A stretch of 64,000 bases of DNA from IMG/VR virus record IMGVR_UViG_3300014325_000011, positions 51,126 through 115,125 of that record. One strand, 5' to 3'. This stretch comes from a virus. The notes under the pieces were generated by a model. That model was not told the origin of the DNA and ran no database searches. It was given only the letters and a program-made list of their open reading frames with translations. The translations under genes were made by a program, and so were the position numbers. Each line of letters opens with the position of its first letter. Position 1 is the stretch's first letter. Shown here piece by piece: positions 31,700 through 61,040 of the stretch.

Positions 31700-31981
31700 T
31701 CAGTTCCGGGCCTGCTCGGCTATCTCACGCCAGCGTCGGGCGTTCTCGGCAAGGGCGGCTGTCAGTGCATCCCGCAGCCGGGCGGCGTCCTGTTCGGACA
31801 GCTCGACGTACACCTCTGGGTCGGCGGCGGTATCCACGGTGGCGATCCGCACCGCATAGCCGGACGGTTCCGCGGCTGGGTGCATCCCGGTGCGGGCCAC
31901 GTCGAGTTCGCGGCCGTCACAGTCGCGGATCGGCTCTGGCAGGTCGAGGGAACTCCAGATGCTCACAGCGGCCTCCGCCAA
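31700..31981 (-). CDS. Hypothetical protein
   Basis: 93-aa ORF between TerL and portal. Confidence 0.45.
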   Translation of the reverse strand: MAEAAVSIWSSLDLPEPIRDCDGRELDVARTGMHPAAEPSGYAVRIATVDTAADPEVYVELSEQDAARLRDALTAALAENARRWREIAEQARN

Positions 31982-34436
31982 CCCTCCTGTGAGGTCTGGC
32001 CGGGGAACAGGTCGTCGATGCCCAACGGGGCTGGTGTCTCGTCGGGCGGAAGCTGGGGCTGTGACCCGGCGGCGTCCTCTTTGGCGAAGACGTGGTTCAT
32101 GTAGAACTGCATCCCACCGATGTCGGCAAGATCAGTTATCGCCCAGACGCAGTTGTGGACCAGCACACCGTTCGCCACGAACTCGTGGACGTCGGCGACC
32201 TGTAGGTCATACACGTCCCGCAGCTCGGGCTCGGCGTAGAGCTGCACCACACGTCCGGCCGCAGGTCTCGGGCTTGACCCGGTACTTGTTCTGCCAGAAC
32301 TCTGTTCCGCAGAGAGGACACGGCACGCGGACCTTGTAGGTGTTGGCGTCTCGGTGATCTTTTTCGATGCACTGTTTCGAGCAGTGCTTGGCTCCCCGGG
32401 GGTTGCGGCTGAGGAACTTCGTGCCGCAAGTGACACAGGTGTACTCGACGTGCTCACGGTCTTCCCAAGTCCGGGCGCCGTGTTCCCGGTGCCACGCTCG
32501 CCCCTCGTCGCTTCGGTGCCACTCGGAAGCCAAATGCCGGACATCGGCGAGATGAGCCTGTTGTCTTGGCCCTCGGTTCCGCTCCAAGACCTCGTCGGCG
32601 TGTTCGGCGAAGTGCTCCGGCGGACTGAGCGCGACAAGGTTCGAGGGGTCGTTGTTGAACGGGTCGTCGTCCTTGTGGTGGACGTGGTAGCCGTCGGGAA
32701 TTGGACCGTGATGGCGCTTGTAGATCTCACGGTGGTACTGCTCAAGGCCGGAGCCACGAGGAGGCGAGTAGTAGACCCGGTTGGCGCGCTGCCGGCCTTT
32801 CGGGTTCCGGGTATAACGCACGCCGTCGAGGTAGACGGAGATAGGCGATTCCATACCACGATTGTATCTGCCCAAACCAGAGAATCGAGACGAGCCCATC
32901 CGCGATTCTCGGTCCAGACAAGGTGATCGGGAGTACCCGTAATCCGTCGCCCGTCAGCCGTAACTGCGGTCATCACCCGGGCTTCGCGGCGCGTACAGCG
33001 CGTCGCTTCGACCAGACGCCATCCCGCGCGGGTCCACACCAGTTCGCCCGGCTGGACATCTTCAATCGGGACGTCACCCCGACGCGCGAGAACCGTGGTA
33101 CCCGCGATCAGGCAGGCGTCGAGCCTGTTCGGCGACCAGTCCGCGTCCGGCGTCCACGAGATCATCTCGTCCTCAAGGTCAGGTAGCCCGCCGACATGGT
33201 GCGCCCGGCCCTGCTCGTAGATCGCCGAGATCGGTTCGGCGCGGATCTTCTTACCGCGGCTGGCCGTGACCTTCGTGTAAGCCACGTTGTGATCCACATG
33301 GCGGATCGTCGACTCGACCATGTCCGCCCCGAAGTTGACCTCGGCGACGATCCTGTCCGCCTTGTACCGGTGGTAGGCGTCGACCGCGGCCCGAGCCCAA
33401 CCATCCGGGCTCGCCTTCAACGTCAGGTCTTCCAACACCCAGAAGTGCTCCTGCGCGTCGACACCGGCTACGACGATGCCCGTGTGGTCCGACTCGTCGT
33501 TGGCCGTACCTGCCGGGTCGATCGCGACCACGATCCGGACCAGAGTGGGTAGGTCTGTGAGCGCACGACGGTGCTCGTCGATGTTGCCCCGGGTCCACAG
33601 GGCGCCCGGGTTGTCGTCCAGGTATTCGCCGTACAGCTCCTGGCGGCCAAGACGGGTGCCCTCGTAGCGCTTGCGCAGTTCCGACAGGGCGGCAGCGGAC
33701 AGGTTCGCCGCGTTGTCGAATGTCGAGCCGCGGGTGACGACTACCGAGCCGTCATCGCGGCCCATCCAGTCCTTGAGCAGGATCGATGGCTTCGGTGTGG
33801 TCGTGACGATGACCTGCGGGCGGCCGATGCGTAGCGCCGGGGCTAGGCCCTCAGTCCAGGACGCGCGGGCGTAACGCCACTTGGCAATTTCATCGAACCA
33901 ACCGCCGGACAGGTTCAGGCCACGGCCTACGTCGGCGTCATCCGCACCCAGCATGTGGATGATCTGGCCTGTGCTCAGCCTGATCTGCCAGAGCGACCGG
34001 TTATACACGTAGTCGACGTGGCGGTTGTTGAGCACGGTGCGAACACCGGCCGGACCTTCGACGCAGACCAGCCGAGCGTCGGAGAACGTTTCGGCGACGA
34101 TCGCCCATTCGGTGGGAGAGCCGTCGGGAGCGGTTGGGGTGTCGAGGACGCGCTGAACCAGCGTCTCGGCACCCGTTCGACTTTTCCCCAACCACGTCCC
34201 GCCAGGATCAGCCAGACGAGCCAGTCGCCGTCAGGTGCCCGCTGGGCGGTCCGTGCATGCTTCCACGTAAACGTGCCGTGGGGTTCGCCGTCACAGTCGT
34301 CGAGGCCGCACGCCCACGGCTTGTCTGCCGTAACGGTGACGGCTTCGAGTTGCTGGCGCAGTTCGAGCTCCCGCCGAAGGAGGGCGAGGCGTCGTTCAGC
34401 TAGGGTCGCCGGTTTCGGCAAGGTCGCGGTGGACAA
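31963..34436 (-). CDS. terL: Terminase large subunit, -1 frameshift at 34182-34188, intein-containing
   Basis: Frame 1 from TTG 34436 (GGAG RBS) ends ...WLILAGRGWGK. The -1 frame continues SRTGAE...GGWFDEIA (Walker B)...TTTPK...GRQELYGE...VAIDPA...DRIVAEVNFG...SPNRLDA. Confidence 0.9.
32152..33114 (-). mobile_element. Intein (321 aa) in the TerL nuclease domain
   Basis: Begins CLIAGTTV (block A); GTPDHLVW (block B TxxH); VYDLQV...HEFVANGVLVHN|C (blocks F/G, Cys+1). Exteins rejoin as SPNRLDA-CVWAITDL. Confidence 0.95.
32207..32854 (-). CDS. HNH homing endonuclease nested in an alternative frame inside the intein
   Basis: YHREIYKRHHGPIPDGYHVHHKDDDPFNNDPSNLVAL...EH..EH (HNH_3 type) plus C-terminal Zn-finger repeats CVTCG..F...CSKQC and CPLCG.EF...TCGRTC. 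Confidence 0.9.
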   Translation of the reverse strand: MESPISVYLDGVRYTRNPKGRQRANRVYYSPPRGSGLEQYHREIYKRHHGPIPDGYHVHHKDDDPFNNDPSNLVALSPPEHFAEHADEVLERNRGPRQQAHLADVRHLASEWHRSDEGRAWHREHGARTWEDREHVEYTCVTCGTKFLSRNPRGAKHCSKQCIEKDHRDANTYKVRVPCPLCGTEFWQNKYRVKPETCGRTCGAALRRARAAGRV

Positions 34437-34890
34437 GGCGGCGCTCCAACTCGGCGATCTCCGCTTCGATCTGGCCGACGGTTCGGACCTCAACCTTGGT
34501 CGGGGCGTCAAGGCCGAGGAGCTTCGCCCGACGGTCTTGGATCTTCAACAGCCGGTCGATGGCGGCGAGGATGGGTGCGTCGTCTTCCAACGGTTTGCCG
34601 TCGTGCCAGATGACGCCGTCTTTCTGGACGGTGTAGTGCTTGGCTTCGAGTACCTGCATGCCGGCCTGGTAAAGCCGGTCGAGGCGTTCGAGTTCGAGGG
34701 CGCGTAGTTCGTCGGCGGTTTCGCGGACGTCGGCGGCGATGATCCGCTGGACGGCGCGGTAGGCGACGCCGCGGTTCGGGTAGCGGAGTTCGGTGGCGAT
34801 CTGCTCGTAGGTCTTGCCTGCGATCCGCATGCGGGCGGCGTCGGCGTCCCGGGCGGCGGTGGCAGGGTTGTTGCGGGCGCGGGGCGGCAT
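34396..34890 (-). CDS. terS: Terminase small subunit
   Basis: HTH (MRIAGKTYEQIATELRY), ELERLDRL, AIDRLLKIQDRRAKLLGLDAP; overlaps the TerL start. Confidence 0.85.
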   Translation of the reverse strand: MPPRARNNPATAARDADAARMRIAGKTYEQIATELRYPNRGVAYRAVQRIIAADVRETADELRALELERLDRLYQAGMQVLEAKHYTVQKDGVIWHDGKPLEDDAPILAAIDRLLKIQDRRAKLLGLDAPTKVEVRTVGQIEAEIAELERRLVHRDLAETGDPS

Positions 34891-59576: not shown

Positions 59577-61040
59577 ATGGTGAACGGCGACGAAAACCAC
59601 CTCGAACCCGCCATCTCCTACGGCCGCGAATCCTACGACCGGTACAACGACGAACACACCGTCGACGCCCAGCTCGCCGGCAACCGCGACGCCGCACCCC
59701 ACCTCGGCCTGCGGATCGTCACCGAACGGCGCGACGATGACATCTCGGCCCACGACGGCACCCACCGGCCCGGCTACCAGCAGGTCGTCGACGACATCCG
59801 CGGCGGCGTCGCCCGAGTCGTCCTCGTGCTGCACACCTCACGGCTGTGGCGGGACCGGGTCGAACGATCCAAGGACATCAACCTGTTCGGCACCTACGGG
59901 GTGCGGATCGTCGCCCGCCGCGGACCCCACCTCGATCTGTCGACAGCGGCAGGCCGCGGACTCGCCGGGCTGATGGGCGAGTTCGACACGATGGAGTCCG
60001 AGACGAAAGGCGAACGGGTCCGCGACGAGCTGGCGCTGCGTGCCGCCGCCGGCCGGTCGATCGGCCCGGTGGCCTACGGCTGGCGCCGGGAAAACGTGTT
60101 CGACGACCGGGGCCGTCGGGTCGACTTCAACGACGTGGAGCATCCCGAGCAGGCCGACGTGGTCCGGTGGATCGTCGATCAGCTTCTCGCCGGCAAGTCG
60201 ATCAAATGGGTGGTGGCCAGTCTCAACGACCGCGGCATCGTCGCCCCCGGCGGAGGGCTGTGGCTGCCTTCCGGGGTTCGGAAGGTGGCTCTGCGGCCGG
60301 CGAACATCGCCCGGAAGGTCTACAAGAGTGCGGACATCGGTCGGGCAGTGTGGCCAGCGATCGTCGACGAGGACAAACATCATCGGGTTGTCGCCCTGCT
60401 GAACGATCCAGTGCGGCTCACGTCCCGGTCGGGTGCCCGGCAGCATGCGCTCACCTACAACGCCGACGTCGGCCGGTGCGGGGTGTGCGAGGGACCGCTG
60501 GCTGTCCACACGGTCAAGACCGGGCGACGGCGGACGGCGCATGTGCTATACGCCTGCCAGAAGGGCTGCGTCGGCCGCAACCAGGAGAAAGTCGACCTGA
60601 TGGTCGAAGGGATGGTGATCGGTGTGCTGGCCCGTCCCGACTGGCGTCGCCGGTTCGACCGGAAAGACACCCGCGCGGTGGCAGCCCGAACCCGAGCGGA
60701 GGCGCTGCGGGCACGACTGCTGCAAGCCACCGACGACTACGACGAGGACCGGATCACCCACGAACAGTTCCTACGTCAGACAACTCGGCTCCGGGACCGG
60801 ATCGCCGAACAGGAGGAGATCGCCCGTCGGGCACAGCCCGGGGTGGGGCCGGAGCTTGCCGAGGGGCTGACGGACGGGCCGGTTGAGGATCGGGTGCGTC
60901 GGTGGCGGGCGCTGTCGGCGGGTCAGAAGCAGCGCCTGTTGGCCGCGTTGCGGGTCCAGGTTCGGATTCTGCCGGTGCGTCGGAAGGGTGCCGGGTTTGA
61001 TCCGACGTCGGTGCTGATCGTCGAGTTGGACGATGCCTGA
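59577..61040 (+). CDS. int: Large serine recombinase (integrase)
   Basis: YGRES catalytic Ser, DDDISA...RPGY...SRLWR, ESETKGER, YGW recombinase domain, CGVC...YAC Zn ribbon, coiled coil. Confidence 0.95.
   Translation: MVNGDENHLEPAISYGRESYDRYNDEHTVDAQLAGNRDAAPHLGLRIVTERRDDDISAHDGTHRPGYQQVVDDIRGGVARVVLVLHTSRLWRDRVERSKDINLFGTYGVRIVARRGPHLDLSTAAGRGLAGLMGEFDTMESETKGERVRDELALRAAAGRSIGPVAYGWRRENVFDDRGRRVDFNDVEHPEQADVVRWIVDQLLAGKSIKWVVASLNDRGIVAPGGGLWLPSGVRKVALRPANIARKVYKSADIGRAVWPAIVDEDKHHRVVALLNDPVRLTSRSGARQHALTYNADVGRCGVCEGPLAVHTVKTGRRRTAHVLYACQKGCVGRNQEKVDLMVEGMVIGVLARPDWRRRFDRKDTRAVAARTRAEALRARLLQATDDYDEDRITHEQFLRQTTRLRDRIAEQEEIARRAQPGVGPELAEGLTDGPVEDRVRRWRALSAGQKQRLLAALRVQVRILPVRRKGAGFDPTSVLIVELDDA

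Follow-up and report, generated by a model that had tools for sequence, protein, structure and literature searches.

A one-base frame break at an in-phase G_GGA_AAA heptamer in the Walker A motif of a soil phage's sole terL gene

In the window (the whole stretch of 64,000 nucleotides analysed here), the large-terminase gene terL loses its conserved frame within the codons of its Walker A motif, at a slippery heptamer on which a -1 slip would regain that frame without the gain or loss of a residue. The break is real in the DNA and is not an assembly error, and we give even odds to TerL being produced by -1 slippage across a deletion that became fixed recently. No tailed phage can do without TerL, which also serves as a routine marker gene. 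Were this phage able to live with a sole terL that is readable only via a -1 slip, recoding would reach into the catalytic core of an indispensable enzyme, such phages would be wrongly called defective by gene callers and completeness tools, and the supply of TerL could be under regulation in temperate actinophages. To our knowledge, such regulation of TerL supply has been proposed for phage Hau3 and never proven. Should the break be a null allele, it would offer a clean natural case of a just-inactivated temperate phage that has still been circulating in soils for several years. The earlier note, which interpreted the site as a possible programmed frameshift setting TerL dosage, is partly supported overall.

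Results

The terL frame break

The first part of terL (frame A, 85 codons, 34182..34436, minus strand) runs from a TTG start at 34436, with GGAG 8 nt upstream, to the Walker-A lysine, ending in ...WLILAGRGWGK. It matches, residue for residue, the N-terminal end of P0003, an intact TerL from Frankia that begins MPTTTLPKPATFAERRL, and also aligns with the continuous TerL of the relative L004. The conserved frame is lost at minus-strand TGG GGA AAA GTC (34190-34179), after which the zero frame runs on from the heptamer for 69 codons without homology (33975..34181, minus strand) to a stop at 33977-33975. This agrees at every coordinate with the earlier note, which had read AGRGWGK followed by drift to a stop at 33975. 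The second part (frame B, 33115..34182, minus strand) is the N-extein, opening with SRTGAE and comprising the ATPase together with the greater part of the nuclease domain; it matches Pfam Terminase_6N (E 1e-14), Terminase_6C (E 3e-12) and a PHROG for terminase large subunit. The C-extein with its stop codon was placed at 31963..32151 (minus strand) by translation and by alignment with P0003 and the IMG/VR contig L003. With PF03237 and PF17289 above their cut-offs, an ATPase bearing Walker A and B and an RNaseH-like nuclease domain present, a portal gene adjoining, and Terminase_6N, Terminase_6C and an intein all found, the gene is terL, as had been proposed.

The heptamer G_GGA_AAA (34182..34188, minus strand) lies in phase with frame A exactly at the frame junction, in the X_XXY_YYZ form. 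On the minus strand of terL, a -1 slip there restores GRGWGKSRTGAE, and the -1 frame, SRTGAETLVQRV..., stays open as far as 31963. Walker A is complete only after this shift. The junction GRGWGK|SRTGAE is the same as in P0003, so that the -1 reading adds and drops no residue; the earlier claim that slippage at 34188-34182 rebuilds the conserved P-loop is thus exact by alignment. The precursor lengths given with that claim were recomputed as 85 + 739 = 824 aa for the recoded product and, minus a 321-aa intein, 503 aa after splicing. This recoded, spliced product aligns end-to-end at 85% identity with the intact 503-aa TerL of Frankia sp. AgW1.1 (P0003, WP_203012400.1, from a 107,780-bp contig), and residues 61-97, which span the break, are 100% identical. 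Alignments to unbroken relatives place a one-base deficit at the break, with one A fewer than in the expected GGA AAA AGT. A TerL starting from the TTG at 34191 (MGKSRTG...), or two fragments jointly rebuilding the P-loop, were considered and rejected because, judging from the conserved alignment, such a product would lack the beta-strand WLILAGRG as well as one half of the P-loop.

Genome state and copies carrying the break

The phage genome (115 kb, Frankia-type, from soil) received a completeness rating of 100%, and the record ends in a terminal overlap of 123 bp and not in host flanks. The genome encodes a serine integrase, the element being temperate, and holds no second terL, so the broken gene is its only one. 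Pfam FtsK_SpoIIIE had no hit in it. Two GC3 frame-plot scans aimed at further frameshifts failed to flag even the terL break, through excess noise or overly strict settings, and gave way to a tblastn comparison. Against a contig of a Frankia symbiont (G001:C29), about 14 proteins are shared and terL alone is split between frames, and the several disrupted genes of a decaying prophage were thus not found among them.

The break sequence is identical in L002 and L003, IMG/VR contigs from two other metagenomes, and an independent soil run from 2025, in which the window-type strain recurs, yielded a 751-nt contig with 0 differences and 0 gaps against 33606-34356. In total, the broken allele occurs in at least four data sets, from 2017 to 2025, and in two genomic backgrounds. 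The earlier note had allowed that a one-base loss by sequencing error or by decay would look the same; the identical independent assemblies all but dispose of the error, and decay is still a live rival. All broken copies share one 1.05-kb patch with zero substitutions over 34671-33620, carried by two mosaic genomes whose likeness elsewhere is 68-97%, and with a single identical patch there is no divergence on which selection on the break could be tested. Downstream of the patch, at 33619-33136, 38 of the 40 codons differing from L003 are synonymous in frame B, an excess that may predate the break. Pattern scans able to catch GGA AAA AGT CGA ACG retrieved no intact form of this allele, Logan contigs of the runs X4, X5 and X6 included no specific contig spanning the break, and no RNA runs with this sequence are listed among public runs. 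Pieces of 34 nt at 34181-34214 (runs X3, X4 and X6) were taken to stem from other DNA, since they carry 2 mismatches and the sequence flanking them departs from that of terL at either end.

Relatives with a continuous frame

Whether relatives have a continuous frame, a check proposed in the earlier note, has a divided answer: relatives at 98% identity have the break too, and all those at 90% identity or less are continuous. The continuous set comprises P0003-P0008, L004, L005, L008 and L036, 153 cultured phages, and 22 plus at least 120 contigs from IMG/VR. The in-phase heptamer is itself present in at least 120 intact relatives, and among the at least 120 contigs with this heptamer in phase and an A5 run, no other lineage retains a deletion. 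A search of the zero-frame product against 1.84 billion representatives retrieved no diverged relative of the clade with the run-on tail. One allele alone has the break, with neither break nor signals conserved in diverged relatives, and for this reason conservation and covariation cannot be shown. Among 56 genomes of the family of the Frankia symbiont, together with a contig scan, the sole relative was G001:C29, at 72-74%. Both GC-rich and AT-richer intact relatives also use AAA for the P-loop lysine. A terL N-fragment from a 140 kb NCBI genome contig (P0144) appears, judged from its protein sequence, to be one base short in the same Lys codon without a slippery site, and its cluster mate P0275 is intact.

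The heptamer and the downstream hairpin

The minus strand of the 115-kb genome carries a single GGGAAAA. The earlier note had drawn a parallel to GGGAAAA as a tail-chaperone slippery site; this single minus-strand copy lies in terL and is not this phage's chaperone site, and in the chaperone ORF pair (6605-5891 and 6162-5649) the last 60 codons hold no canonical heptamer in phase. Of the Gly codons, 7.5% are GGA; AAA accounts for 14% of Lys codons and AGT for 5% of Ser codons. For these three rare codons to stand in a row as GGA-AAA-AGT, the joint expectation is about 5e-4. The heptamer's presence in phase follows from the W-G-K codons and does not go beyond chance. The genome contains no tRNA genes able to alter GGA or AAA decoding, and there is no convincing Shine-Dalgarno-like element 10-14 nt upstream of the heptamer.

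An imperfect stem-loop with a 14-bp stem, a candidate stimulator, lies 7 nt 3' of the heptamer (34137..34174, minus strand). It folds at -19.3 kcal/mol alone and at -20.4 within 50-52 nt, and 13.6% of the genome's 50-nt windows fold equally well or better (empirical p about 0.14). In context it scores a z of -1.4 to -1.9, reaching -2.7 only if the sequence is cut exactly to the stem; the same place in four unbroken homologues gives -0.75 to +0.75. The outer stem is made of conserved T-G and T-P codons, and Rfam returned no match, frameshift elements included, in 33900-34500. The stem-loop thus exists where the earlier note had placed it, but does not stand out statistically and looks ordinary for this GC content. 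It may nevertheless help slippage.

Discussion

Explanations for the break

Under the reading to which we give the even chance, an inherited deletion of one base, the simplest form being A5 to A4 in GGA AAA AGT, would have arisen within the Walker-A codons, and because W-G-K was already written TGG GGA AAA, it would have landed on an in-phase X_XXY_YYZ heptamer. The tRNA-Gly and tRNA-Lys together, or tRNA-Lys alone on the four A's, could then slip by -1 and regain the terL frame, amounting to compensatory ('corrective') frameshifting of an indel that would now be the standard allele of the lineage. The yield of full-length TerL would probably be a few per cent, atop a TTG start, and the intein would then be spliced out. 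A useful rate of slippage and the viability of the phage are what we infer; the TTG start, the frameshift and the intein together would leave very little TerL, which counts against slippage. A nearly comparable claim, to which we lean somewhat less, is that a recent one-base deletion simply inactivated terL and the element persists as a lysogen or independently of virions, with heptamer and hairpin as coincidental by-products of coding sequence. A null terL can be carried along by a temperate element with a serine integrase, and one-base indels typically fall in homopolymer runs. Consistent with inactivation, the break is limited to one allele without later divergence, all other relatives are intact, the heptamer pre-exists in the many intact genes counted above, the hairpin's p value is unremarkable, and P0144 seems to have lost a base in the same codon without a slippery site. 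Inactivation is harder to reconcile with the integrity of every other gene shared with G001:C29, with a terminal overlap instead of host flanks, and with the finding of the broken version in all those data sets and both backgrounds while no intact version turned up in the collections searched. Some -1 product should leak through even at a chance G_GGA_AAA, and 'null' may therefore not be absolute.

That the heptamer and hairpin were selected as an evolved, regulated -1 frameshift, setting TerL dosage or coupling packaging to host translation, we regard as unlikely. The geometry is canonical (heptamer, 7-nt spacer, 14-bp stem), the rare-codon trio is improbable by its joint expectation, the hairpin's z-score (-1.5 to -1.9 in this comparison) falls below those of the four unbroken homologues, and regulatory recoding has been proposed for Hau3 at the same P-loop (PMC10732093). 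Against such selection, no diverged relative has the break, the hairpin looks unexceptional in its genome with an outer stem dictated by conserved T-G and T-P codons, intact relatives also encode the P-loop lysine as AAA, and Rfam gave no match. It is similarly doubtful that an obligatory P-loop -1 shift is a selected valve of this temperate phage, one that holds TerL levels low or links packaging to how actively the Frankia host translates. Such a valve would run parallel to the UUA-bypass proposal for Hau3 and might belong to a wider, undescribed habit of terL recoding at Walker A among soil actinophages. Heterogeneity or artefact, be it assembly or sequencing error, a phase-variable run length or transcriptional slippage, is very improbable. 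The break does lie in a G4A4 homopolymer context, and Logan contigs and assemblies drop rare variants, which makes a minority A5 population possible, but four independent assemblies carry the same sequence. Slipped-strand variation and RNA-polymerase slippage, moreover, become appreciable only in runs of about 7-9 or more, and runs of 4 fall short of this.

Comparison with known systems

The arrangement of heptamer, 5-9 nt spacer and stem-loop is shared with Escherichia coli dnaX, which combines A_AAA_AAG, a Shine-Dalgarno-like element upstream and a strong, proven 3' hairpin and makes two functional products; in contrast to the internal Shine-Dalgarno of dnaX, the terL site has no convincing counterpart. 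In lambda G/GT, the heptamer G_GGA_AAG needs no structure to shift at a few per cent. For lambda G/GT and the other -1 frameshifts of the G_GGA_AAG type in tail-assembly chaperones, PMC9030533 cites Levin 1993 and Xu 2004. The terL site resembles lambda G/GT in its heptamer class (G_GGA_AAR), in a simultaneous or P-site -1 slip and in residing in a structural or packaging gene of a tailed phage. In the lambda type, both products are functional, a complete protein is extended near its 3' end, and phages that have diverged widely keep the site, whereas in terL the shift would be obligatory, 85 codons in, inside the P-loop and confined to a single allele, with a zero-frame product that looks useless.

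A closer parallel in gene and motif is the candidate UUA-triggered bypassing in terL of the Streptomyces phage Hau3, the prophage StrepC.1 and one other prophage (PMC10732093; PMC5009743). Similar to the present case, Hau3 is a temperate actinophage with its sole terL broken at Walker A (KGWG|K there, after GRGWGK here) and a terminase whose production requires recoding. The Hau3-type breaks are 10-nt inserts opening with a rare UUA, for which hopping is proposed (PMC10732093; PMC5009743); in contrast, the terL described here is missing one base, for which a -1 slip is enough, its junction shows no TTA and no insert of about 10 nt, and its family, Terminase_6N, differs from that of Hau3. Frameshifting that makes up for an indel, known as 'corrective' or 'savior indel', forms an established category, an example being G-run indels in herpesvirus thymidine kinase (PMC5009743). 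There, as would apply here, a homopolymer indel in a gene that is essential or useful is offset by low-level slippage on the same run and the unshifted product is useless; the herpesvirus case concerns a eukaryotic virus under drug selection, whereas no selective benefit is known for the terL break. Putative terL frameshifts have also been put forward for the Microbacterium prophage vB_MoxS-R1 and the Gordonia phage Nyceirae, which in PMC9030533 likewise appear as actinobacterial (pro)phages with terL as two overlapping ORFs and a suspected frameshift. As described there, these frameshifts are speculative, lack a canonical heptamer (GGT-AGC is proposed) and are not placed at Walker A.

Intein and neighbouring genes

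An ORF of 164 aa, taken from the ORF list and its translation, lies upstream in the position of a small terminase (34396..34890, minus strand), and this position is what suggests that it encodes one. It shares its frame with the second part of terL, and the terL start at 34436 lies 41 nt ahead of the ORF's end. The ORF matches phrog_645 (E 1e-31), labelled 'Rnase E', and had no hit in Pfam; all 4 of its 4 differences from L003 are synonymous. Directly downstream of terL is the portal gene (PF04860, 31678-29546). The 321-aa intein (32152..33114, minus strand; Pfam Intein_splicing and Hint_2, PF14890 E 1.5e-10) sits in the nuclease domain and carries the motifs CLIAG...TPDH...VHN|C, with its N-terminal Cys, a TxxH block and a C-terminal HN ahead of Cys+1. 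It is absent from L002 and L003, its bounds CLIAG...VHN|C were set by alignment to intein-less alleles, and its excision yields the junction found in L003 and P0003. Within the intein, a third frame holds a 230-aa ORF starting with ATG (32207..32899, minus strand) that retrieved matches to Pfam HNH_3 (E 1e-13) and to phrog_15471, HNH endonuclease (E 9e-29).

A frame break within the Walker A codons of terL

The single terL gene of this genome (minus strand) follows an ORF in the small-terminase position and is interrupted in its P-loop codons at the heptamer G_GGA_AAA (34188-34182). The apparent start codon is TTG 34436, with GGAG 8 nt upstream and a 41-nt overlap with the end of the preceding ORF; no ATG or GTG was found in frame A, the zero frame, from 34511 to the break. 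The frame A part of the gene comprises 85 codons ending in ...WLILAGRGWGK and is homologous to the N-termini of continuous TerLs (those of the unbroken relative L004 and of P0004-P0008). Past the junction, TGG GGA AAA G at 34190-34181, frame A runs for 69 codons without homology to a stop at 33977-33975. Frame B, the -1 frame, reads SRTGAETLVQRV... after the junction, stays open to 31963, and carries Terminase_6N, Terminase_6C, and a 321 aa intein (CLIAG...TPDH...VHN/C; 33114-32152, minus strand). Conceptually, the recoded precursor is 824 aa long, and 503 aa once spliced; the description of the break in the earlier note was accurate to the base in its coordinates, frames, and product lengths.

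Once recoded and spliced, the product can be aligned over the full length of both proteins, at 85% identity, with P0003, an intact 503 aa protein of Frankia sp. AgW1.1 named as a terminase by NCBI, and residues 61-97, which cross the junction, are 100% identical. The alignments indicate that the frame A and frame B parts are one gene. In DNA alignments with four unbroken relatives (L004, L005, L008, and L009), the window has exactly one base fewer, and the break would most simply have arisen when GGA AAA AGT lost an A.

The earlier note had allowed for a sequencing error. This is excluded, as L002 and L003, contigs from two other metagenomes, have the identical sequence with the same two overlapping ORFs, and a 751-nt contig from an independent 2025 soil run covers 33606-34356 with 0 differences and 0 gaps. 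Any explanation by artefact, or by heterogeneity at the DNA or RNA level, is highly improbable. A second contig of the soil run matches the window-type allele at 33100-33343.

Distribution of the broken allele

In degenerate pattern scans, the contigs of L002 and L003 were the only others with the broken form, and no intact counterpart of this allele was recovered. All more distant relatives have a continuous frame: P0003 (90% identical to the L003 ORF), P0004-P0008, the terL genes of L004/L007, L005/L009, L008, and L036, 22 IMG/VR contigs encoding GRGWGKSRTGAE, and 153 cultured phages. The earlier note had held that continuous relatives would count against a programmed shift, which applies to these but not to L002 and L003. 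A search of the zero-frame product against 1.84 billion representative proteins found no diverged relative of the same clade with the run-on tail.

Relatedness between the window and G057, the contig of L003, is mosaic, with 68-97% similarity depending on the segment. The two have 52 differing positions across terS-terL, none of them within 34671-33620, a 1.05-kb patch of 100% identity that includes the break and looks like a recent recombination patch. The patch spans the 3' two-thirds of the upstream ORF and the 5' part of terL, and both of its flanks show 3-10% difference; Logan unitigs from two runs stop at its edge, at 33606-33608. The broken allele has thus entered, or been retained in, two distinct genomic backgrounds, and has not yet had time to gather changes that would test selection on the break. 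Over 33619-33136, 40 codons differ between the window and L003, 38 of them synonymously when read in frame B, which marks this as the frame under selection; the divergence may be older than the break.

Recoding, leakage, or loss of function

On G_GGA_AAA, tRNA-Lys would re-pair perfectly with the four A's and tRNA-Gly would re-pair with GGG. The near-identical lambda G/GT site gives a few per cent of shifting without any structure, so some TerL would be expected here whatever the history of the site. Translation from TTG 34191 was considered and rejected because strand beta-1 and half of the P-loop would be missing; since TerL activity depends on a complete P-loop, the only route to active enzyme is a -1 shift on the heptamer. 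We give roughly even chances to a leaky shift supplying enough TerL, with the broken allele as the working form of this lineage. This would be compensatory frameshifting, a recognised class (reviewed in PMC5009743). That the allele is a recent null, maintained through lysogeny, is somewhat less probable; the serine-integrase Recombinase domain at 60144-60398 marks the phage as temperate.

A truly evolved regulatory device, counted within the leaky reading, is unlikely. The programmed frameshift proposed in the earlier note is plausible, with a canonical, in-phase heptamer and exact restoration of the P-loop, but it is unproven, its stimulator is weak, and the break fails the conservation expected of an established programmed frameshift. 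The heptamer itself is simply the spelling of W-G-K with GGA and AAA: at least 120 IMG/VR contigs whose Walker A is intact have TGG/TTT GGA AAA A(C/G)N there. GGA (7.5%), AAA (14%), and AGT (5%) are rare codons in this GC-rich genome and their conjunction is unusual, yet it is equally needed by a deletion in the A-run. The hairpin at 34174-34137 (7-nt spacer, about -20 kcal/mol), put forward earlier as a stimulator, is equalled or exceeded by 13.6% of all 50-nt windows in this genome. Its z-score in context is -1.4 to -1.9, whereas the corresponding site of unbroken homologues scores -0.75 to +0.75, a suggestive difference, though with four comparators only. Conserved T-G and T-P codons partly build its outer stem, and the hairpin region had no Rfam match.

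Frameshifting at G_GGA_AAR in the -1 direction is classical in tail chaperones. The published terL recoding that we found consists of proposals (PMC10732093; PMC5009743; PMC9030533). UUA-triggered bypassing after KGWG of terL, at the same P-loop, was proposed for Hau3, a Streptomyces phage, and for two prophages (PMC10732093; PMC5009743); the window's break has neither UUA nor insert, and is therefore not of the Hau3 type. Another paper gives a speculative terL frameshift in Microbacterium prophage vB_MoxS-R1 and mentions that terL of Gordonia phage Nyceirae is split (PMC9030533).

Genome context and other terL fragments

The source, an IMG/VR virus record of which the window takes up bases 51126-115125, is 115,125 bp long with a 123 bp terminal overlap, a completeness rating of 100%, and about 67% G+C; no tRNA genes were found in the genome. 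The upstream ORF (34890-34396, minus strand) matches phrog_645 and no Pfam family; the phrog label, "Rnase E", is probably misleading for this family. The portal gene (PF04860) lies at 31678-29546 (minus strand). About 14 genes are common to this genome and G001:C29, a related 112,930 bp contig of a Frankia symbiont (all its ORFs translated, tblastn), and terL is the sole one whose match is split over two frames; apart from the break, the genetic context is sound. Inside the intein, a complete 230 aa HNH endonuclease ORF with an ATG start (32207-32899, minus strand) occupies the third frame, and the intein frame is open throughout it, encoding a linker rich in S, T, R, and P. Two ORFs resembling a tail-assembly-chaperone pair, at 6605-5891 and 6162-5649 (minus strand), overlap by 271 nt, and the final 60 codons of the 6605-5891 ORF contain no canonical X_XXY_YYZ heptamer.

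Searches also retrieved other terL fragments. P0144 (NCBI, from a contig of 140,216 bp) is an N-fragment ending ...GRGWGSRGRRRRR, where its 90%-cluster mate P0275 reads GRGWGKSRTAAEA; at the protein level, this would fit one base lost in the Walker A lysine codon, with no slippery heptamer. P0236, P0273, and P0274 (Logan, 7 contigs) are 115-116 aa ORFs of an unrelated terL lineage reading ...GRGWGK, followed by off-frame-looking tails with PNGR like the window's run-on, and may represent a second lineage broken near the same place. Several terL fragments from other sources (P0216, P0238, and P0242) leave frame about 13 codons past GK and run into a common SLPRTPIRG motif, present twice in P0238; the pattern resembles insertion of a small repeat element into terL.
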